DNA of 8,139 nt, taken from IMG/VR virus record IMGVR_UViG_2554235185_000004, positions 1 through 8,139 of that record; one strand, given 5' to 3'. The notes beneath the pieces are model-generated. The model was not told the origin of the DNA and ran no database searches. It saw only the letters and a list, made by a program, of their open reading frames with translations. Within the stretch, counting starts at the first letter, position 1. Each line of letters begins with the position of its first letter. The translations under genes and the position numbers were made by a program. Positions 1-8,139 of this stretch are shown here, in pieces. Origin of the DNA: a virus (lineage: Duplodnaviria; Heunggongvirae; Uroviricota; Caudoviricetes).

Positions 1-722
1 GCGCAATGGTGTTGTGCTGGCACTGCGACAACCAGCTGCGCGACCAGACCTCCGAATCACTCGGGCAACTTGCTCACCAAAACCTGTCTGCATGGATGAT
101 TGACGTCATACGCCATGCAATGAATGGCTCGCAGGAACGGGAATTATCGCTGGCTGAATTATCCTGGTGGGCGGTCCGCAATCAGGTGGCGGACGCGCTA
201 CCGGAAGCGGTATTACGTCGTTCGCTGGGGTTGCGTGCGGAAAAAATCCGCTCAATGTACCGTGAAAGCGACATCGTACCGGGAGAGCAGACCGCCACCA
301 GCATACTGAAACAGCGCACAAAAAATCTTGCGCCGCTGCCTCACGCCCACCAGCAACAGAACCCACCACAGGAAAAGACGGTGGTCAGCATTGCCGTTGA
401 TCCGGAATCTCCGGCTCAGTATCTCCAGCGCCAGAAACCACAACGGGAAGAGATGCCTGTATACACGCGCTGGGTAAAAACGCAGAAATGCATGACGTGT
501 GGCAATCAGGCAGATGATCCGCATCACATCATTGGTCATGGACTGGGAGGGATGGGAACAAAGGCTGACGATTTGTTTGTTATTCCGCTGTGTCGTAAAT
601 GCCATAACGAACTACACGCCGGGGTAAAAGATTTTGAAGAAAAACACGGTAGTCAGTTGTTGTTGCTGATTCGTTTTTTAATGCACGCGAGAAATTCGGG
701 TGTTCTGAAGTGGAAAGCATAA
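1..722 (+). CDS. NinG/DUF968-like protein with a C-terminal HNH-type Cys/His (zinc-finger nuclease-like) motif; probably 5'-partial
   Basis: Reading frame is open from the window edge (first ATG at 6) to TAA at 720-722. C-terminal region has CxxC ... HH ... CxxCH ... H (CMTCGNQADDPHHIIGHG...CRKCHNELH), as in NinG/YdfU-type nin-region proteins. Sits immediately upstream of rusA, as in lambdoid nin regions. Confidence 0.6.
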   Translation, partial: AMVLCWHCDNQLRDQTSESLGQLAHQNLSAWMIDVIRHAMNGSQERELSLAELSWWAVRNQVADALPEAVLRRSLGLRAEKIRSMYRESDIVPGEQTATSILKQRTKNLAPLPHAHQQQNPPQEKTVVSIAVDPESPAQYLQRQKPQREEMPVYTRWVKTQKCMTCGNQADDPHHIIGHGLGGMGTKADDLFVIPLCRKCHNELHAGVKDFEEKHGSQLLLLIRFLMHARNSGVLKWKA

Positions 723-1091
723 ATGACCGAACGCATAGAATTTGTTTTGCCTTACTCGCCGACGGTGAACACTTACTGGCGACGCCGTGGCAGCACATAT
801 TTTGTATCAAAAGCCGGGGAGCGTTATCGCCGGGCAGTGGCGCTTATTGTTCGCCAGCAGCGACTGAAATTAAGCCTGTCCGGACGGCTGGCAATAAAAA
901 TTATTGCAGAGCCACCGGATAAGCGTCGTCGTGACCTGGACAATATTCTGAAAGCACCACTGGATGCGCTGACGCACGCGGGGTTGTTAATGGACGATGA
1001 GCAGTTTGATGAAATCAATATTGTACGTGGCCAGCCAGTATCTGGTGGACGGCTGGAGATAAGAATTACAGAGGTGGGTGTGCATGAATAA
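723..1091 (+). CDS. rusA: Crossover junction endodeoxyribonuclease RusA (Holliday junction resolvase)
   Basis: 122-aa ORF. Shares conserved blocks with remembered E. coli RusA (PDKRRRDLDNILKAPLDALTHAGLLMDDEQ and GGRLEIRITE versus [30 protein letters not shown] and GGRLELTITE). ATG directly follows the upstream stop (TAAATG), with GGAAAG upstream. Confidence 0.9.
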   Translation: MTERIEFVLPYSPTVNTYWRRRGSTYFVSKAGERYRRAVALIVRQQRLKLSLSGRLAIKIIAEPPDKRRRDLDNILKAPLDALTHAGLLMDDEQFDEINIVRGQPVSGGRLEIRITEVGVHE

Positions 1092-1773
1092 CCAGTATTT
1101 ACAGTTTGTTCGTGAGCAACTCATGATTGCCACTGCAGATCTCAGTGGGTCGACAAAATGCCAGCTGGAAGCCTGGCAGGAAAATGCCCTGTTCGATACA
1201 GGGCGTTACAGACGCAAAAAAATTCGTTACCGCGATGAGGTAACCGGAAAAATGATCACGCGGGATAATCCCCCGATCCAGGGTAAACAATCACTGGCGA
1301 AAGGCTCATCAATTGCGCTGGTCAGTCCTGTTGAGTTTGCAACATCATCGTGGCGGCGTGCTGTTCTGGAACTGGAAGAACATCAGAAGGCGTGGTTGTT
1401 GTGGTGTTATGGCGGAAACATTTGCTGGGAGCATCAGATCGCGATAACGCAGTGGGGGTGGAGTGAATTTAAAACTCAGTCCGGCTCCAGAAAAATTGCA
1501 GTGAAAACGCTGGAGCGTGTGAAGAAGTTGATCTGGCTGGCGGCACAGGATGTCAGAGGATGGGTTACCGGGTGTGAGGTCTACCAGAGACAGGAGCTTG
1601 CCAGACTGTGTGGAGTTAAGCCTGATAACTGGAGCCATAATTATGCGAACTACTGGCGTGAGATGTGCGATATTTTTAAGCGCCTCGATAGAGAATCCTT
1701 GATTTGCTCCGTGAAAATAAGAGCGCAACAAAAAGCGACCTTTTCACGACGAGATATTGCAAAAGTCAATTAA
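1084..1773 (+). CDS. Putative late-gene antitermination protein Q (assigned mainly by position)
   Basis: 229-aa ORF from ATG 1084 (GAGGTG Shine-Dalgarno at 1071-1076; an alternative GTG lies at 1078), overlapping the rusA stop. Lies between rusA and a promoter-plus-terminator pair that precedes the lysis genes. I could not match the sequence to a specific Q family by eye. Confidence 0.5.
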   Translation: MNNQYLQFVREQLMIATADLSGSTKCQLEAWQENALFDTGRYRRKKIRYRDEVTGKMITRDNPPIQGKQSLAKGSSIALVSPVEFATSSWRRAVLELEEHQKAWLLWCYGGNICWEHQIAITQWGWSEFKTQSGSRKIAVKTLERVKKLIWLAAQDVRGWVTGCEVYQRQELARLCGVKPDNWSHNYANYWREMCDIFKRLDRESLICSVKIRAQQKATFSRRDIAKVN

Positions 1774-1800
1774 ATCGCGTATGTTTCGTATAAATCTGAT
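1757..1800 (+). promoter_or_regulatory. Candidate late promoter (PR'-like) with tandem -10-like hexamers
   Basis: TTGCAA (1757-1762), 17-bp spacer, TATGTT (1780-1785), then a second -10-like TATAAA (1789-1794). Located directly after the putative Q stop and upstream of a strong terminator, as for lambda PR'/qut/tR'. Confidence 0.3.
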
Positions 1801-1834
1801 ATTTTGCCGATTTTGTACGTGATGGCAAAGTAAG

Positions 1835-1862
1835 AAAAAACCACCGCCAGGTGGTTTTTTTT
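1835..1862 (+). terminator. Intrinsic terminator (tR'-like) downstream of putative Q
   Basis: A6 then CCACC (1841-1845), loop GCCA, GGTGG (1850-1854), then T8 (1855-1862). A/T flanks make it potentially bidirectional. Confidence 0.7.
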
Positions 1863-2183
1863 ATGTCCGAAAATCGCGTCAGTACAGTAAACGCGCTGGT
1901 GGTTGCGAATACGGGTCTTTCAGCTTGCCGGCTTTTTCGACAAGAGTTATTGGTATGTCACGTTAACCGGAAAAGGGAAAAAGACATGCTAAAACAGCAG
2001 GATATGACAGAAGCCGCCAGAGTGGTGTTTAATGAATTAAGCGTTACCGACCCGGCGACAGTCAGGGAGATTGCACAGAATACTTACCTTTCACGCGAAC
2101 GCTGCCAGTTAATACTGACCCAGCTTGTTATGGCGGGTCTGGCAGACTATCAGTTTGGTTGTTACAGACACCTTCAGTCCTGA
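1863..2183 (+). CDS. Hypothetical small protein (moron candidate); alternative start ATG 1986 gives 65 aa
   Basis: ORF from ATG 1863 (106 aa), or from ATG 1986 with a purine-rich AAGGG Shine-Dalgarno. Its TGA stop is embedded in a hairpin followed by a T-run (2171-2197). No homolog recognised. Confidence 0.4.
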   Translation: MSENRVSTVNALVVANTGLSACRLFRQELLVCHVNRKREKDMLKQQDMTEAARVVFNELSVTDPATVREIAQNTYLSRERCQLILTQLVMAGLADYQFGCYRHLQS

Positions 2184-2197
2184 AGGCTTTTTTATTT
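2171..2197 (+). terminator. Intrinsic terminator at the end of the small gene
   Basis: CCTTCA (2171-2176), loop GTCC, TGAAGG (2181-2186), followed by CTTTTTTATTT. Confidence 0.55.
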
Positions 2198-2497
2198 GTG
2201 GTAAATGGGCGGCTGGTGGGTGTGGTGGTTGTTGCTTTCCCGTTGCTGAAAAAGAAAACGCCAGACTGTTAGCCGGGTATCAGTTAGCGGGAGAAATTTT
2301 TAAATACTTCACAATTCAGGCGGTTGACTGTTGTCTGGTTTGCGGGGAGTTTGTTAAAAGAAACTGGCATGGTGAATCCCCCTGTGCGGAGGGGCAATCA
2401 GCGAGTAGGTATATGGGATAATCGCGGATTCAGGTGCTGGTACTGAATTCACCGGGAGGCACCCGGCACCATGCAATGGCACATAGCGCCACTCTCC

Positions 2498-2526
2498 AGC
2501 CCCTCTCCGGAGGGGCTGTTTATATT
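2498..2526 (+). terminator. GC-rich perfect hairpin with downstream T-rich tract (terminator-like, + orientation)
   Basis: AGCCCCTC (2498-2505), loop TCCG, GAGGGGCT (2510-2517), followed by GTTTATATTGATTTTG. A smaller hairpin CCGGG/CCCGG lies at 2452-2466. Confidence 0.5.
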
Positions 2527-2552
2527 GATTTTGTCAGATGTGAGTAAACTCC

Positions 2553-2888
2553 TTATGGACTTTGTTGTTTTAGCCCATAAGGACATATTTGCAGAGTGCA
2601 ACGGTTATTAAAGCATTCATTCAATACGTTATCTGTATTTGTAGGGCATTCCTGGCTGTTTTTGATTAAATTCCAGAATGTTTTATTGAATGGTACTACG
2701 TTGTAAATGGTTACAGGTAGCACTTTGTTATTGAGCATGATACCTGTGTGAGTCAGTGTAAATATACTTTCAGGAGGTAAGAAAGCATCCGATTGATACC
2801 AGATTATTAATTTTATTTTACTCCATATGACTGAAAAAGATATTCCGCATGATGGCTGGATAACTGTATCAATCACAATCCACTTCAT
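2553..2888 (-). CDS. Hypothetical protein encoded in an AT-rich island
   Basis: 111-aa minus-strand ORF with a good Shine-Dalgarno (AAGGAAA about 4 nt upstream of ATG at 2888-2886). Lies inside a visibly AT-rich block (about 2530-3130) that contrasts with flanking phage DNA. No homolog recognised. Confidence 0.45.
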
Positions 2889-3148
2889 TTAGTTTCCTTG
2901 TTTATGCCTTGCTGGTGATGTTCTGAAAAGTATAAATGATATTTTTGATTGTAAACCATAGAGCAGAATTATTTTTCTGATGTTGTTTATTGTTTATTTA
3001 AATGCAGGGTGGTTTATATCTCGTCTTGTAGTTTATCCATGCATATCTGCTTGATGATGAGGTTTTTATTTAAGGTATGGTTTTGTGTTTTTTCTGTATT
3101 ACATGTCAGGTATTTTAAAGAATCATTTTTCAGATGGTGGAAAGAACC

Positions 3149-3337
3149 ATGGCATTTAAACACTATGATGTTGTCAGGGCGGCGTCGCCGTCAGATCTTG
3201 CGGAAAAGCTGACACATAAACTGAAAGAGGGCTGGCAGCCGTTTGGTAGTCCGGTGGCCATAACCCCTTATACCCTGATGCAGGCGATTGCAGCAGAAGG
3301 TGATGTGGTGGTCAGTGGTGCAACTGAGCCGGAGTGA
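3149..3337 (+). pseudogene. DUF1737-like small ORF, possibly the N-terminal remnant of a larger (nanS-p esterase-like) prophage gene
   Basis: 62-aa ORF from ATG 3149 (GGTGGAAAG upstream), MAFKHYDVVRAASPSDLAEKLTHKLKEGWQPFGSPVAITPYTLMQAIAAEGD. From memory this resembles the DUF1737 N-terminal domain of prophage 9-O-acetylesterase genes located before S in Stx-type phages. Downstream DNA (3337-3492) is open in other frames but not this one, consistent with a frameshifted or truncated remnant. Confidence 0.4.
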
Positions 3338-3580
3338 TACTACGTCATCGTACTGGCCCGGCATTCCAGGCCATAAAAGACGGTCTGGCAGTGGGACTAA
3401 ATGCACTGACGCTGACGGATATTACCAAAAATGCAACGTATGGCGTTGAGATAGAAAGTCTGGTGCTGGAGATAAATGCACCGGCATCATCATAAAAAGT
3501 GAGCCAGTCAAATGGAAGGTATCGTTAAACTCACCGGTAGTGTCAGTGGGTCGTCTGAGACGCCTGCATGAGTTATCAGA

Positions 3581-3612
3581 GCCATCAGTACTTAACTGGT
3601 GGCTTTTTTATT
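3581..3612 (+). terminator. Intrinsic terminator immediately upstream of the holin gene
   Basis: GCCATCAG (3581-3588), loop TACTTAA, CTGGTGGC (3596-3603; one G-U wobble), followed by TTTTTTATTG. Confidence 0.55.
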
Positions 3613-3644
3613 GTTGTCAGCTTCCGGATAACGGGAGACGGGGT

Positions 3645-3860
3645 ATGTACCAGATGGAAAAAATCACAACAGGTGTGTCATACACCACGTCAGCGGTGGG
3701 AACGGGCTACTGGTTCCTGCAGTTGCTGGACAGGGTTTCCCCGTCTCAGTGGGCGGCAATAGGCGTGCTGGGGAGTCTGCTGTTTGGGCTGCTGACATAT
3801 CTGACTAACCTGTATTTCAAAATCAAAGAGGACCGGCGTAAGGCGGCGCGGGGAGAGTAA
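3645..3860 (+). CDS. S: Class II holin, phage 21 S21-type pinholin (EssD-like), with dual-start motif
   Basis: 71 aa, [71 protein letters not shown]. Near-identical by memory to S21/EssD pinholins (two transmembrane domains, charged C-terminus). GGGAGA Shine-Dalgarno at 3633-3638. Met1 and Met4 give the dual-start arrangement. Confidence 0.9.
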
Positions 3861-3864
3861 AGTG

Positions 3865-4755
3865 ATGAATAAAAAATATGAACTGGTTGTTAAGGGGATA
3901 AATAATTACGGGGATAAGGTTACTGTTACTGTGAAGTCGGAAGGTGACGGGCAAGCGTCGCTGTTGTTGCCAGATGTGGCGATTAGTCTTGACCGTACTG
4001 AAGGTGCCACGCTGGAGTTTTACGAAGCTGAGGCGAAAAAGCAGGCGAAGCAGTTTTTCATGGATGTTGCTGCCGGGTTATGTGAATGGAACGAACCGTT
4101 GCCGGAAAAGCGCCCCGTAATTTTAGAGGCGCAGGATGTGTTGATAACCTACAAAGGAAAGCTACCGGGAAGAATTACTTGTTCTCTGAAGATGCCGCCG
4201 TCAACACTGCGGTCAGAAAAAGATGATGTTGAATCACGTATTGAAAAACTGGAGAGCTACGTCGTTGAGCTGAATAAGAAATGGTCGATATTGGTGCCTT
4301 CTGGCGATGAAAAGCAGTTTGCTGCGTTTGACGATTATTGTCGGAAAGTGATGAGCAGAAATCTCGCAGAGTGTTTCAGTATTCATAATGATAATTTCAG
4401 TGACCCGGAATGGGAGTGTAACCGGCCATCCTTTGTTGTATCCGGTGATGCTGGGAAAATAACCATCTCAGAAAATGGGAAAGTAACACCTCCATCGCAC
4501 CAGCACAGTGAGGAGCTCATTGAATTTGCCATTGATTACCTGAAGAACAATAAAAAGCAGGGGCTGATGAAGCGCGTTGGCCGTTGCATGGGATATCTTC
4601 AGGTAGCCGCTGAGATTGAAGCGCTGGCCAGTGGTGCTGATAAGGATGCAATTGTGCGGGAGGCTCTTCTTCGTGATTTTAATACTCCACCCTTTAAAAA
4701 AGTGCCGGCTTACTGGCTTCATCCGGGGCTGACTTATCTTAAAGTGCGTATTTAG
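3865..4755 (+). CDS. Hypothetical 296-aa soluble protein inserted between holin and endolysin (unknown function)
   Basis: Long ORF from ATG 3865 (GTG at 3862 also in frame), with GGGGAGAG Shine-Dalgarno lying in the 3' end of the holin gene and the start 5 nt after the holin stop (translational coupling). No signal peptide or transmembrane segment seen, and no motif I recognise. Confidence 0.75.
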   Translation: MNKKYELVVKGINNYGDKVTVTVKSEGDGQASLLLPDVAISLDRTEGATLEFYEAEAKKQAKQFFMDVAAGLCEWNEPLPEKRPVILEAQDVLITYKGKLPGRITCSLKMPPSTLRSEKDDVESRIEKLESYVVELNKKWSILVPSGDEKQFAAFDDYCRKVMSRNLAECFSIHNDNFSDPEWECNRPSFVVSGDAGKITISENGKVTPPSHQHSEELIEFAIDYLKNNKKQGLMKRVGRCMGYLQVAAEIEALASGADKDAIVREALLRDFNTPPFKKVPAYWLHPGLTYLKVRI

Positions 4756-4791
4756 TGGGCCAGGGACAGCGGCTGAATATTTAATATATCC

Positions 4792-5325
4792 ATGAACACC
4801 AAAATCAAATACGGCCTGTCGGCTGCCGTTCTGGCGCTGATTGCCGCTGGTGCGCCTGCGCCTGACATTCTCGACCAGTTTCTGGATGAAAAGGAAGGCA
4901 ACCACACCACGGCATACCGTGATGGTGCAGGTATCTGGACCATCTGCCGTGGTGCCATCATGGTGGATGGCAAACCTGTCGTTCCGGGCATGAAGTTGTC
5001 GAAGGAAAAATGCGACCAGGTTAACGCCATTGAGCGTGATAAAGCGCTGGCGTGGGTGGAGAAAAACATCAGAGTGCCGCTGACCGAACCCCAGAAAGCG
5101 GGGATCGCGTCATTCTGTCCGTACAACATTGGTCCCGGTAAGTGTTTCCCGTCGACGTTTTACAGACGAATTAATGCTGGTGATCGAAAAGGTGCCTGCG
5201 AAGCGATTCGCTGGTGGATTAAGGACGGTGGCAGAGACTGCCGTATTCGTTCAAACAACTGTTACGGTCAGGTATCCCGTCGTGACCAGGAGAGCGCGCT
5301 GGCGTGCTGGGGTATCGACAGATAA
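4792..5325 (+). CDS. R: SAR endolysin (phage lysozyme, T4/P22-type glycoside hydrolase family 24, R21-like)
   Basis: 177 aa. N-terminal Gly/Ala-rich weakly hydrophobic signal-anchor-release segment (KYGLSAAVLALIAAGAPAP). Catalytic E...D...T spacing (EGNHTTAYRDGAGIWTICRG) typical of P22/21-type lysozymes. A SAR endolysin is the expected partner of a pinholin. Confidence 0.9.
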   Translation: MNTKIKYGLSAAVLALIAAGAPAPDILDQFLDEKEGNHTTAYRDGAGIWTICRGAIMVDGKPVVPGMKLSKEKCDQVNAIERDKALAWVEKNIRVPLTEPQKAGIASFCPYNIGPGKCFPSTFYRRINAGDRKGACEAIRWWIKDGGRDCRIRSNNCYGQVSRRDQESALACWGIDR

Positions 5326-5481
5326 GCAGAATATTTTGCTGAAAAATGAGGAATGGCCACGCGGGCGGATAACACGAAATCCTGCGAACTGGCGAAACGT
5401 AAGTGAATAAAAGTAAAAACCCCGTTTGTTGGCACCAAGCGAGGTTTTGTGTTTCTGACCTTGAGTAAGGCAAGGGAGAAC

Positions 5482-5664
5482 ATGGCGAAGTGTAAACGAA
5501 TTCTGTTGAGGTTGACTATGAAAAATGGCCTTGAACTGAAAGCGCCTGTAACTGATGACATCAGCAGAGCACTGGCTTTTGCCATTAAGTGGGTGGCGGT
5601 CGGTGTTGCTGTGTCCCCGATGCTGTATGGGCTGGCAAAACTGGTCATTGCGTTGAAATCGTGA
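5482..5664 (+). CDS. Hypothetical small protein (60 aa) with hydrophobic C-terminal segment
   Basis: ATG 5482 preceded by AGGGAG (5473-5478). Sequence [60 protein letters not shown] has a basic N-terminus and a hydrophobic C-terminal stretch. Located between the endolysin and Rz. Confidence 0.4.
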
Positions 5665-5678
5665 AGGGAGGATTAAGC

Positions 5679-5810
5679 ATGTCAGACAAACTCATAACGC
5701 TGGCGAAGATCCTCTGTGTAATTGTCGGCATTTCATTTTCACTAATGCTGGTTGCTCTTTTTCTTTCCATGGCCTGGATGATGTTGTCTTCGTCGGGGTT
5801 GCTGGGGTGA
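5679..5810 (+). CDS. Hypothetical small single-pass membrane protein (43 aa)
   Basis: ATG 5679 preceded by a strong GGGAGG Shine-Dalgarno (5665-5670). [43 protein letters not shown] is almost entirely one transmembrane helix. Its TGA (5808-5810) overlaps a GTG at 5807 that begins the Rz frame (GTGA coupling). Confidence 0.45.
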
Positions 5811-6280
5811 ACATAAACCGAATGCTTTCCGCGTTTATCGTTATTCTGCTGGTGGCCTGTGGTGCGCTGTGGATGGCAACAGACCATTACCGTGATAACG
5901 CGATTACCTACAAAGCGCAGCGCGATAACAAAGCCAGTGAACTGAAGCTGGCGAACGCAACCATTACTGATATGCAGGTGCGCCAGCGCGATGTTGCTGC
6001 GCTCGATGCAAAATACTCGAGGGAATTAGCCGATGCGAGAGCTGAAAATGAAACTCTTCGCGCTGACGTTGCCGCTGGTCGTAAGCGCCTGCGGATCAAC
6101 GCCACCTGTCCAGGCTCCGTGCGTGAAGCCCCCACCACCTCCGGCGTGGATAATGCAACCGGCCCCCAACTGGCAGACACCGTTACACGGGATTATTTCA
6201 CCCTCAGAGAGCGGCTGATGACGATGCACAAGCAACTGGAAGGGGCACAGGACTATATCCGCACTCAGTGCCTGAAATAA
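5807..6280 (+). CDS. Rz: Rz, inner-membrane spanin subunit (i-spanin)
   Basis: Strong similarity by memory to RzpD (shared [44 protein letters not shown]). N-terminal transmembrane segment followed by a coiled-coil-like periplasmic domain. Start could be GTG 5807 or ATG 5822. Confidence 0.88.
6033..6218 (+). CDS. Rz1: Rz1, outer-membrane lipoprotein spanin subunit (o-spanin), embedded in the +1 frame of Rz
   Basis: 61-aa ORF wholly inside Rz in another frame. Lipobox VVSAC, then a proline-rich mature region with [14 protein letters not shown], as in RzoD/Rz1. Alternative start at ATG 6048. Confidence 0.85.
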
Positions 6281-6590
6281 GTTTTGTTGATGCGCCGTAT
6301 CGTCGCTATATTCCCTCATTAACAGAGACCGCAGCCCGACAGGGAGACTCCTCTGCGCGAGTGTGCGGGGATAATTAAAAACGATGCACACCGGGTTTTT
6401 ACCGCGTTAATGATTCGCGGGTTTATCCCGGTGCGATGGTGGAAGAAACAGGAAGCTGTATTACAGAAAGTGCTACTACTGTATCCCGATGCGATGTATG
6501 TAATGTGAGTCAGATAATGGCACAGGATGTGGTGATGTGGCAGTCTGGAACACAGGATATATTGTCAGAATAAGACCCGTAGGAATAAAA

Positions 6591-6917
6591 ATGAAAAGAC
6601 GCCTTTTACTACTTTTTCTGTTATCTGTCCTGGCAGTGGGATGCTCGCAGCAAAAAGCTGATGAGCCCCGGCAATTAGTGACGGTGTATCCACGATATCC
6701 GGAATATGCTGCAGCAAATTATATCAAGGGGCTGGTTGAGGTTAAGTTCGATATTGGTGCTGATGGGACTGTGACACGGATCGTTTTTCTCCGCTCAGAG
6801 CCTCATAATTTGTTTCGTGATGAAGTGGTGAAGGCCATGGCGAAATGGCGATTTGAAAAGAATCGCCCCTGTCAGGGAGTGAAGAGACAATTTATCTTTA
6901 CGCCGTCACGTCCTTGA
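6591..6917 (+). CDS. Lipoprotein with TonB C-terminal-like domain (moron)
   Basis: ATG 6591 with AGGAA Shine-Dalgarno. Signal peptide plus lipobox (MKRRLLLLFLLSVLAVGC, Ser at +2). Mature region PRYPEYAAANYIKGLVEVKFDIGADGTVTRIVFLRSEPHNLFRDEVVKAMAKWRFE aligns by eye with the E. coli TonB C-terminal domain [56 protein letters not shown]. Preceded by about 310 bp of non-coding DNA. Confidence 0.75.
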   Translation: MKRRLLLLFLLSVLAVGCSQQKADEPRQLVTVYPRYPEYAAANYIKGLVEVKFDIGADGTVTRIVFLRSEPHNLFRDEVVKAMAKWRFEKNRPCQGVKRQFIFTPSRP

Positions 6918-7008
6918 TGCTTCCAGGTAGAGAGGGGCTGGACGCAGGAGAAAAATGAAAGAGCCAGCGGTTATATTTTTGTCATGGCTGACGAGGAATG
7001 ATGGAAGA

Positions 7009-7058
7009 AGGCGTTGTATGCCACACAACGCCTCACTGTTCATTTCTTCTTTTTCTCT
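7009..7058. terminator. Hairpin between convergent genes (possible bidirectional terminator)
   Basis: AGGCGTTGT (7009-7017), loop ATGCCAC, ACAACGCCT (7025-7033), a perfect 9-bp stem. T-rich tract TTCATTTCTTCTTTTTCTC follows on the + strand after a short spacer; the U-tract on the minus side is weaker. The T-rich tract overlaps the last codons and stop (7040-7042) of the minus-strand ORF. Confidence 0.4.
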
Positions 7059-7219
7059 GGTGGAACCCGATGAATAAGAGTTGCACTGGTTTCCGATGAG
7101 ATGGCGATATACTCGGGCAAAGTATGCTGGCAGTTTTCCAACTGGTCAAAAATACCTGCTCTCGTCTGTTGCAATGCCTGCAGCATGCGGCGGCAATGCG
7201 CCTTGCTTTTACTAACCAT
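7040..7219 (-). CDS. Hypothetical small protein (59 aa; the longer 117-aa frame to 7393 is less likely)
   Basis: Internal ATG at 7219 is preceded on the minus strand by a strong GAGGAAGGAAAG Shine-Dalgarno. The extension up to 7393 is proline-rich and overlaps the upstream gene in another frame. Product MVSKSKAHCRRMLQALQQTRAGIFDQLENCQHTLPEYIAISSETSATLIHRVPPEKKKK is not recognised. Confidence 0.35.
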   Translation of the reverse strand: MVSKSKAHCRRMLQALQQTRAGIFDQLENCQHTLPEYIAISSETSATLIHRVPPEKKKK

Positions 7220-7280
7220 CTTTCCTTCCTCTATCAGTCGCTGCGTGAACTCATCATGTAATACCAGGTAAATGCGGATG

Positions 7281-7532
7281 TTATCGGTTTTGGCTACGCA
7301 GCATAGTACAAAACGGACAGGTGCATCCCGGGACGGGGGAGGCGTCACATGTCCCTGTGATGGTTGTTCCGGGTAATGCACTGTGTGGGGCATAAAAATG
7401 TCCGATAATTTTACTTTCTACCGCAGTTAGTTGATTCGTTGGTCCTGGTAGCACATTGGGCGAGGATTTAAATGCCAGGCAACTGAAGGATGATGTTGCA
7501 AGGGAGATAGCGAGAATATTTCTGATTTTCAT
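7281..7532 (-). CDS. Small secreted, cysteine-rich protein or lipoprotein (signal peptide MKIRNILAISLATSSFSC), Bor-position moron
   Basis: Minus-strand ATG at 7532 with a GAGG-containing Shine-Dalgarno. Classic N-terminal signal peptide with a possible lipobox (SSFSC) or signal peptidase I site. Mature part has 5 Cys (TGTCDASPVPGCTCPFC). Same location and orientation as lambda bor, but not Bor-like by sequence. Confidence 0.5.
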   Translation of the reverse strand: MKIRNILAISLATSSFSCLAFKSSPNVLPGPTNQLTAVESKIIGHFYAPHSALPGTTITGTCDASPVPGCTCPFCTMLRSQNR

Positions 7533-7668
7533 TTGATGATGCCTCTGTGTGAAATGACGGTAAACGACGCACTTGTGCCGGCACATAATAGCAAGCACCA
7601 TAATAGATCAGATTCGATTCTTGCTGTAAGTGATAATTATTCTCGTTTTCGGGTCCTTTCCGTCGATC

Positions 7669-7704
7669 CAACAGGTTACGGGGCGGCGACCTCGCGGGTT
7701 TTCG
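7669..7704. other. cos: cosN, cohesive-end site (12-nt cohesive end GGGCGGCGACCT at 7681-7692)
   Basis: CGATCCAACAGGTTACG|GGGCGGCGACCTCGCGGGTTTTCGCTATTTATGAAAATTTTCCGG matches the joined right and left ends of the lambda genome almost base for base (from memory). Lies about 180 bp upstream of nu1. Confidence 0.85.
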
Positions 7705-7728
7705 CTATTTATGAAAATTTTCCGGGGA

Positions 7729-7845
7729 AAATCATGTCGGTACTTCTCGAACATAACTATTTGTTTTTTCTAATATCGAATCCGTAAAAGGTCCGACATG
7801 AAAACGCCTAAAAAAGTCATTTTCGGGCACTTTCATGTCGGCCCC
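7729..7845. promoter_or_regulatory. cosB-like region with three copies of a TCATGTCGG element (candidate Nu1 R sites)
   Basis: CATGTCGG at 7733-7740 (+) and 7834-7841 (+), and its inverse CCGACATG at 7793-7800, with AT-rich spacers. Position between cosN and nu1 matches lambda cosB, but the sequence differs from lambda here. Confidence 0.45.
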
Positions 7846-7867
7846 TGTATTTATTGTGAGACTGTTT

Positions 7868-8139
7868 CATGAAGGTTAATAAAAAGAAACTTGCCGAAAT
7901 TTTCAACGTGGATCCGCGAACGATTGAACGCTGGCAGTCTCAGGGACTCCCTTGCGTCTCCGGAGGTGGTAAGGGCGTTGAATCTGTATTTGATACCGCC
8001 ATGGCAATTCAGTGGTATGCGCAGAGGGAAGCTGATATCGAAAATGAAAAACTCCGTAAAGAGGTTGAGGATTACAGGGCTGCCAGTGAGGCAGATCTCC
8101 AGCCTGGGACTATTGAGTACGAACGCCATCGACTTACGC
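7868..8139 (+). CDS. nu1: Terminase small subunit Nu1 (gp1), 5' portion; continues beyond the window
   Basis: ATG 7868, open to the window end. [90 protein letters not shown] closely parallels lambda Nu1 (MEVNKKQLADIF...GGGKG...[33 protein letters not shown]), with a diverged helix-turn-helix segment. Confidence 0.9.

Follow-up and report, generated by a model that had tools for sequence, protein, structure and literature searches.

The cos site of this prophage raises a question of identity: when the cohesive ends look like those of lambda and the DNA beside them does not, whose packaging specificity does the element have? A first-pass annotation had proposed phage-21-type specificity on a conserved nicking site. 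We followed up the proposal in the window, that is, the whole stretch of 8,139 nucleotides analysed, using as references the right and left ends of lambda and two phage 21 records that had been annotated independently, M81255.1 and OL657228.1. In our reading, positions 7650–7868 very probably form the complete cos of a lambda-like Escherichia coli prophage, which would have the specificity of phage 21, be served by a chimeric small terminase subunit and act in the style known from lambda and phage 21.

The conserved left part of cos

The segment that precedes cosB contains the following elements.

7650–7661, plus strand: R4 box (CGGGTCCTTTCC), 12 of 12 bases as in the R4 annotated in M81255.1; lambda is identical
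7651–7657, plus strand: cosQ (GGGTCCT), the packaging-termination subsite, inside the R4 box
7679–7694, no strand assigned: cosN nicking site, consisting of the cohesive end GGGCGGCGACCT at 7681–7692 and 2 bp on each side; the ends of lambda and phage 21 are identical
7710–7724, plus strand: I2, a secondary IHF-like site between cosN and R3, 13 of 15 bases as in the I2 of M81255.1 and identical to lambda

The extent of cosN follows the usage of PMC9026076. As in other lambda-like cos sites, which give 12-base 5' cohesive ends, the 12-bp cohesive end lies in a partly symmetric cosN, with a 7-bp cosQ approximately 30 bp upstream; cosQ starts 29 nt before the right end, the same distance as in OL657228 (cosQ at 42902–42908) and in lambda. 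The annotation had described the cohesive-end site and its flanks as almost identical to lambda, and the alignment bears this out: 7670–7725 is a perfect match, position 7725 corresponding to lambda bp 45, while 7650–7669 contains three mismatches and a 1-base indel is found immediately to the left of 7650. The divergence from lambda, which had been placed at about 7707, starts at 7726 in the alignment, some 20 bases later.

Since cosQ and cosN have been reported to be identical between lambda and phage 21, a lambda-identical cosN beside a 21-type cosB does not in itself represent any special chimera. Only four positions flanking cosN (7698, 7704, 7722 and 7724) are lambda-type and not 21-type. 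The DNA leading up to cos resembles phage 21.

6291–7680, plus strand: phage-21-like terminal part of the prophage's right arm, reaching the right cohesive end

Over 1391 nt, this segment is 98.7% identical to the right end of phage 21 (blastn; OL657228 41542–42931).

R boxes and IHF-like sites of cosB

Beyond the conserved segment, the alignment with phage 21 identifies four further elements.

7730–7745, plus strand: R3, predicted small-subunit binding box, 15 of 16 bases as in phage 21 R3; core at 7732–7740
7752–7766, minus strand: I1, putative IHF bending site between R3 and R2, 13 of 15 bases as in phage 21 I1
7788–7803, minus strand: R2, predicted small-subunit binding box, inverted, 16 of 16 bases as in phage 21; core at 7793–7801
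7831–7846, plus strand: R1, predicted small-subunit binding box, aligned to phage 21 R1; the core TTTCATGTCGG, at 7833–7841, is identical

The starting point for these assignments was the observation of three copies of a short repeat, two direct and one inverted, where the R sites would be expected. The repeats are real: the 8,139-base window contains exactly three perfect copies of TCATGTCGG (7732–7740 and 7833–7841 on the plus strand and 7793–7801 on the minus strand), against a mean of 0.04 in dinucleotide-preserving shuffles, none of the 200 of which had three or more. We relied on exact matches because a search allowing one mismatch has no power, with 1.6 copies expected on average. Their placement holds as well: the alignment with phage 21, which could have displaced them, puts each of the three copies precisely in one of the annotated boxes, R3, R2 and R1. 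The resulting arrangement, R3-I1-R2-R1 with R2 inverted and an IHF-like site between R3 and R2, is the complex cosB layout of the lambda, 21, phi80, Gifsy-1 and Monarch type.

R3 occupies bp 50–65 from the left end, as it does in lambda and 21, and from bp 1 to bp 65 the alignment has no indels relative to either phage; the spacing from cosN to R3 is therefore preserved. The position of R3 and its spacing from cosN have been described as critical in both lambda and 21 (PMC9026076). Within the box, bp 56 and bp 59 have been reported as critical lambda/21 specificity contacts (PMC4669245); both are G in the window (7736 and 7739), as in 21, whereas lambda has T and C. The sole difference from phage 21 R3 is at bp 54, with A here and G in 21, and it makes the R3 of the window a perfect copy of the core shared by R2 and R1. 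Across seven 21-type loci, including the diverged PhiR5_1, the cores of the R boxes and of I1 are kept while the spacers drift, and the R1 core is kept in six other 21-type loci. The start codon of the small subunit is also aligned with that of phage 21.

At I1, the minus strand of 7754–7766 reads AAACAAATAGTTA, with one mismatch to the IHF consensus WATCAANNNNTTR, and the site sits exactly where lambda has AAACATTAAGTTA. A scan of the window for the consensus with one mismatch gave 8 matches vs. 9.2 expected, which is no better than chance, and we rejected it as stand-alone evidence; what supports the I1 assignment is its homologous position.

A chimeric small terminase subunit

The gene that starts directly to the right of cos falls into three parts.

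7869–8060, plus strand: 5' portion of the gene for the terminase small subunit, a homologue of Nu1 and gene 1 (PF07471), 21-type, codons 1 to approximately 64
8061–8083, plus strand: crossover zone in the small subunit gene, codons approximately 65–72, where informative sites are mixed and the sliding identity switches
8084–8139, plus strand: lambda-type remainder of the small subunit gene, which continues past the end of the window

The open reading frame from the ATG at 7869 runs off the end of the window; in the parent genome, the complete small subunit has 181 aa. The Phage_Nu1 family (PF07471) is matched with 156.7 bits (E = 5e-46) by the fragment in the window and with 302.6 bits by the full protein, the cut-off being 30. 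The first part, 7869–8060, is predicted to encode a 21-type winged helix-turn-helix DNA-binding domain. Over residues 1–54, only five differences separate it from the phage 21 small subunit (K7R, V30A, G32K, G34S and V37I, window residue first) and many more separate it from lambda, in agreement with the earlier remark that the N-terminal helix-turn-helix is unlike that of lambda and closer to 21. PMC9026076 assigns the recognition helix to residues 17–24. Their sequence in the window, RTIERWQS, is the same in phage 21 gp1 and in PDB 7LWR; the lambda counterpart is RTIQNWQE. The sequence of 7LWR equals residues 1–54 of phage 21 gp1, an identification made through sequence identity alone, and our literature search did not find a paper describing 7LWR, 7LXS or 7LW0.

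The wing of the domain is intermediate between the two phages: residues 31–39 are SGGGKGVES in the window, RGGGKGNEV in lambda and SKGSKGIES in 21, and the minor-groove contact K35 is conserved. A lambda-like GGGKG motif in the wing of an otherwise 21-type domain could be either a lambda-type patch within the 21-type cassette or the ancestral state.

We mapped the mosaic with sliding-window identity and with a tally of informative sites, i.e., those where lambda and 21 differ. At 7681–7725, the informative sites are 0 21-type and 4 lambda-type; at 7726–8060, they are 121 and 14, with 68 and 7 in the coding part from 7869 to 8060. At 8084–8139, every informative site is lambda-type or resembles neither parent, and none is 21-type; these final 56 bases are lambda-type. 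The pattern continues beyond the window, where, in the parent genome, 97–100% identity to lambda extends over the remainder of this gene and all of the gene for the large subunit. Residues 1–100 of the large subunit share 93% identity with lambda, compared with 63% for 21. CosB together with codons 1 to approximately 64 is ~89% identical to phage 21, vs. ~45–55% for cosB compared with lambda, whereas the full-length small subunit, being lambda-type from codon ~73 onward, is closer to lambda (83% identity) than to 21 (65%).

Judging from these alignments, the small subunit is a natural chimera, with a 21-type cassette of cosB and DNA-binding domain (7726 to ~8060) joined to a lambda-type part for oligomerization and for binding the large subunit, in keeping with the lambda-type large subunit encoded downstream. 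The description of the gene as a 21-like Nu1 is then correct for the N-terminal DNA-binding part and fails from ~8084 onward, where the protein is lambda-type; a 21-type C-terminal domain, which would pair with the 21 large subunit (gp2), is not present in the protein from codon ~73.

Relation to phage 21, lambda and a laboratory hybrid

With the cos of phage 21 (cosQ-cosN-I2-R3-I1-R2-R1; M81255.1, X02501.1 and OL657228.1), the window shares the order, orientation and positions of the subsites, the R-box core CATGTCGG, G56 and G59, the position of I1, and the recognition helix. It differs from phage 21 in having the perfect core in R3, where phage 21 has TCGTGTCGG, in 1 extra bp between I1 and R2, in the wing (G32, G34 and V37 in the window), and, on a larger scale, in its lambda-type large subunit and in the C-terminal two thirds of its small subunit, which are also lambda-type. 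With lambda, the window has in common an identical cosQ, cosN and I2, the R3-I1-R2-R1 layout and the location of R3 at bp 50–65, but the R boxes of lambda are unrelated in sequence, being of the CGTTTCC type with T56 and C59. Lambda gpNu1 (PDB 1J9I for the DNA-binding domain) belongs to the same family, and the C-terminal part of the window protein is near-identical to it.

The combination seen here has a counterpart made by experiment. The hybrid phage lambda-21 hy51 from the Feiss laboratory has cosB-21 and a small subunit encoded by 21 gene 1 in its 5' half and by lambda Nu1 in its 3' half, and it works with lambda gpA; the hybrid is viable and has 21-specific packaging (PMC4669245). Its architecture is the same as that of the window: a 21-type cosB and DNA-binding domain, a lambda-type part for binding the large subunit, and a lambda-type large subunit. 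While hy51 is laboratory-made, the chimera in the window is natural and widespread in E. coli, and its 21-type part is a diverged allele.

Packaging specificity and a proposed mechanism

The specificity of phage 21 is understood here as a more than 1000-fold preference for cos-21 over cos-lambda DNA together with binding of the boxes by the small subunit. We consider it the probable specificity of the window because both partners match 21, the R boxes with G56 and G59 on one side and the helix RTIERWQS on the other; on these grounds, the original proposal of phage-21-type packaging on a conserved nicking site is supported. We infer both the small-subunit binding and the packaging specificity from homology and published work. 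On the other hand, the identity to phage 21 is only ~89%, the wing is intermediate and I1 stands 1 bp farther from R2 than in 21, and for these reasons the fine specificity or the dependence on IHF could differ. It is conceivable, though rather unlikely, that the allele found here, with its perfect R3 core and lambda-like GGGKG wing, has an altered IHF dependence or a sub-specificity other than that of phage 21.

The mechanism that we propose is that of the lambda/21 paradigm, with the IHF bending and the nick positions taken from homology and published work. Winged helix-turn-helix dimers of the small subunit would bind R3 and R2 across a bend at I1, R1 having an accessory role; bending by IHF at I1 would turn both R3 and R2 toward a single dimer. 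With its anchor at R3, the complex would then position the large subunit for staggered nicks 12 bp apart in cosN, predicted at 7680/7681 on the top strand and at 7692/7693 on the bottom strand, which would generate GGGCGGCGACCT ends and allow packaging to proceed rightward. The terminase would remain on the end bearing cosB and dock on the portal, and cosQ (7651–7657) and cosN would serve in termination at the next cos. The lambda-type C-terminal part of the small subunit would couple the complex to the lambda-type large subunit.

Alternative explanations

Does the prophage still use this site? The whole window is 100% identical to a chromosomal prophage of E. coli LP-26-E1-261, a river isolate from France, and the site could in principle be a decayed remnant in a cryptic prophage, similar to the noh/cos relics of DLP12 and Qin, with repeats that were inherited and are no longer used. 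Some features of the neighborhood fit this idea: the early region resembles that of cryptic K-12 prophages (dicB, hokD and rem), and several neighboring genes are annotated as pseudogenes (DUF1737 and YdfR). The site itself does not look decayed, however, as the subsites of cos are all intact and the small subunit has its full length of 181 aa; the nohA and nohD relics of K-12 match only the 3' 127 nt, at ~81%. The LP-26-E1-261 prophage has a complete lambda-like operon of terminase, portal, protease, decoration, capsid and tail genes, the annotation giving its terminase, portal, protease, capsid and tail genes as intact. Furthermore, the cos/Nu1 segment is present at 99% identity in IdasGreatGrand, a phage isolated as a virus, which argues for a functional site. 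We rejected the explanation on gene content and regard a disused remnant as very unlikely.

The segment is also common. The 440-nt cos/Nu1 segment is found with full coverage and at least ~98% identity in ~370–550 of 5,426 complete E. coli genomes, an estimate based on an evenly spaced ranking in which the third row has 98.4% identity and the fourth 83.7%; a 21-type relative with at least 80% coverage is found in ~1,180 genomes.

A second alternative concerns the inverted pair of boxes. Instead of protein-binding sites, the dyad formed by R2, the spacer and R1 (7788–7846) could be mainly an RNA or DNA hairpin, acting as an attenuator, a terminator-like structure or a translational element in front of the small subunit gene. 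The RNA fold of 7780–7875 is indeed stable, with −28.9 kcal/mol and z = −3.2 (z = −5.5 for phage 21), and when the spacer alone is shuffled, the fractions of shuffles that are at least as stable as the native sequence are 0.02 for the window, 0.01 for 21, 0.07 for PhiR5_1 and 0.14 for lambda. As spacer shuffling weakens the fold in all four, the dyad reaches somewhat past the boxes: the 31-nt spacer between R2 and R1 has more pairing than shuffled spacers, the effect being weaker in lambda. Two inverted 16-bp boxes, however, yield most of the stem automatically, and R3 has the same core without having a hairpin partner. The spacers share a GAAAA...TTTT..GGC pattern, and common ancestry or A-tract bending explains them equally well. 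The terminator scan of the plus strand of cos found nothing, and in the combined promoter and terminator scan of 7300–8139 there were no hits within cos. Moreover, any function of a hairpin could coexist with binding of the small subunit. That the dyad is mainly a hairpin seems to us even less probable than a disused remnant; a R2-R1 hairpin is a possible secondary feature, going weakly beyond what the two inverted boxes create, of a site whose R boxes we continue to interpret as binding sites of the small subunit.

Finally, one may ask if this is the cos of a phage-inducible chromosomal island (PICI) hijacking the terminase of a helper through a lambda-like cosN and an Rpp adaptor. PICIs have a cosQ and a cosN that hardly differ from those of lambda, and a small gene comes next. 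Reported PICI cos sites, however, are without repeated R boxes, of which there are three here, and the gene downstream encodes a full Phage_Nu1 family protein, with a large subunit gene and the complete morphogenesis operon after it. The boxes, together with the presence of terminase genes, exclude this reading, to which we assign next to no probability.

A natural chimera and a possibly exchangeable cassette

The system itself is well studied and common in E. coli, and the site described here is phage-21 packaging specificity in a natural chimeric form. The finding raises no new question, and its practical value lies mainly in annotation: the subsites of prophage cos are almost never annotated, and here they are placed to the base. 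Such a placement predicts the DNA ends in the virion and the helper or co-resident phages that could cross-package the element. The locus also provides a natural example of the hybrid result from the Feiss laboratory, namely that specificity resides in a small cassette of cosB and the N-terminal domain and can be recombined onto a lambda-type motor.

It is tempting to go further and suggest that the cassette of cosB and the DNA-binding domain (~350 bp, 7726 to ~8070) may be a freely exchangeable specificity module, although we consider this generalization speculative and rather unlikely. The limits of such a module would be the invariant cosN-I2 segment on the left and the conserved core helix of the small subunit on the right. 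If the idea were true, swapping of the cassettes could be selected for, as a way to avoid cross-packaging by co-resident prophages or to escape the Rpp hijackers of PICIs.

Many E. coli prophages are 100% identical to the window over 1–7726 and then, exactly at the I2/R3 boundary, continue with cosB of a third kind. The same right arm is found with at least two unrelated cassettes, the 21-type and one with CATGTCCGG repeats, the latter seen in strain 7/2 and in the PhiR12 phages. In E. coli 7/2 (NZ_CP023820.1; locus L006, 9226–9885), this third type of cosB contains one direct copy of CATGTCCGG and two inverted copies of CCGGACATG. Next to it is encoded a small subunit of 169 aa, of which only residues 49–150 match Phage_Nu1; over the first ~63 residues, no similarity to the DNA-binding domains of lambda, 21 and phi80 could be detected, and we found no description of a third specificity type with the CATGTCCGG repeat.

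Neighboring genes in the window

The resemblance of the right arm to phage 21 varies from gene to gene. The protein of the lipoprotein gene with a TonB C-terminal domain, at 6591–6917, is identical to that of phage 21 in 108 of 108 residues. The lysis genes had been called 21-like, and this is true of the holin, with 77% identity to S21, and untrue of the endolysin, with 31% identity to R21. The lysis cassette at 3645–5325 is itself a mosaic, having an S21-type pinholin gene at 3645–3860 and the endolysin gene at 4792–5325. An open reading frame of 297 aa (3862–4755, plus strand) lies between the two and makes an unusual insertion in a lysis cassette; in RefSeq, the annotation covers just the first third of it and calls this a truncated "YdfR family" pseudogene. 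Phage 21 has two tRNA genes downstream of the late promoter, and none are present here.

Further to the left, a match to the sRNA family STnc100 (Rfam RF02076) is found at 2338–2527 on the plus strand, downstream of the Q antiterminator gene, with 132 bits vs. the gathering score of 47. The match partly overlaps the region just upstream of an iraM-like gene on the opposite strand. That gene (2553–2888, minus strand) is annotated as an IraM anti-adapter, a stabilizer of RpoS, and sits between Q and the lysis genes, a moron position of the late region.
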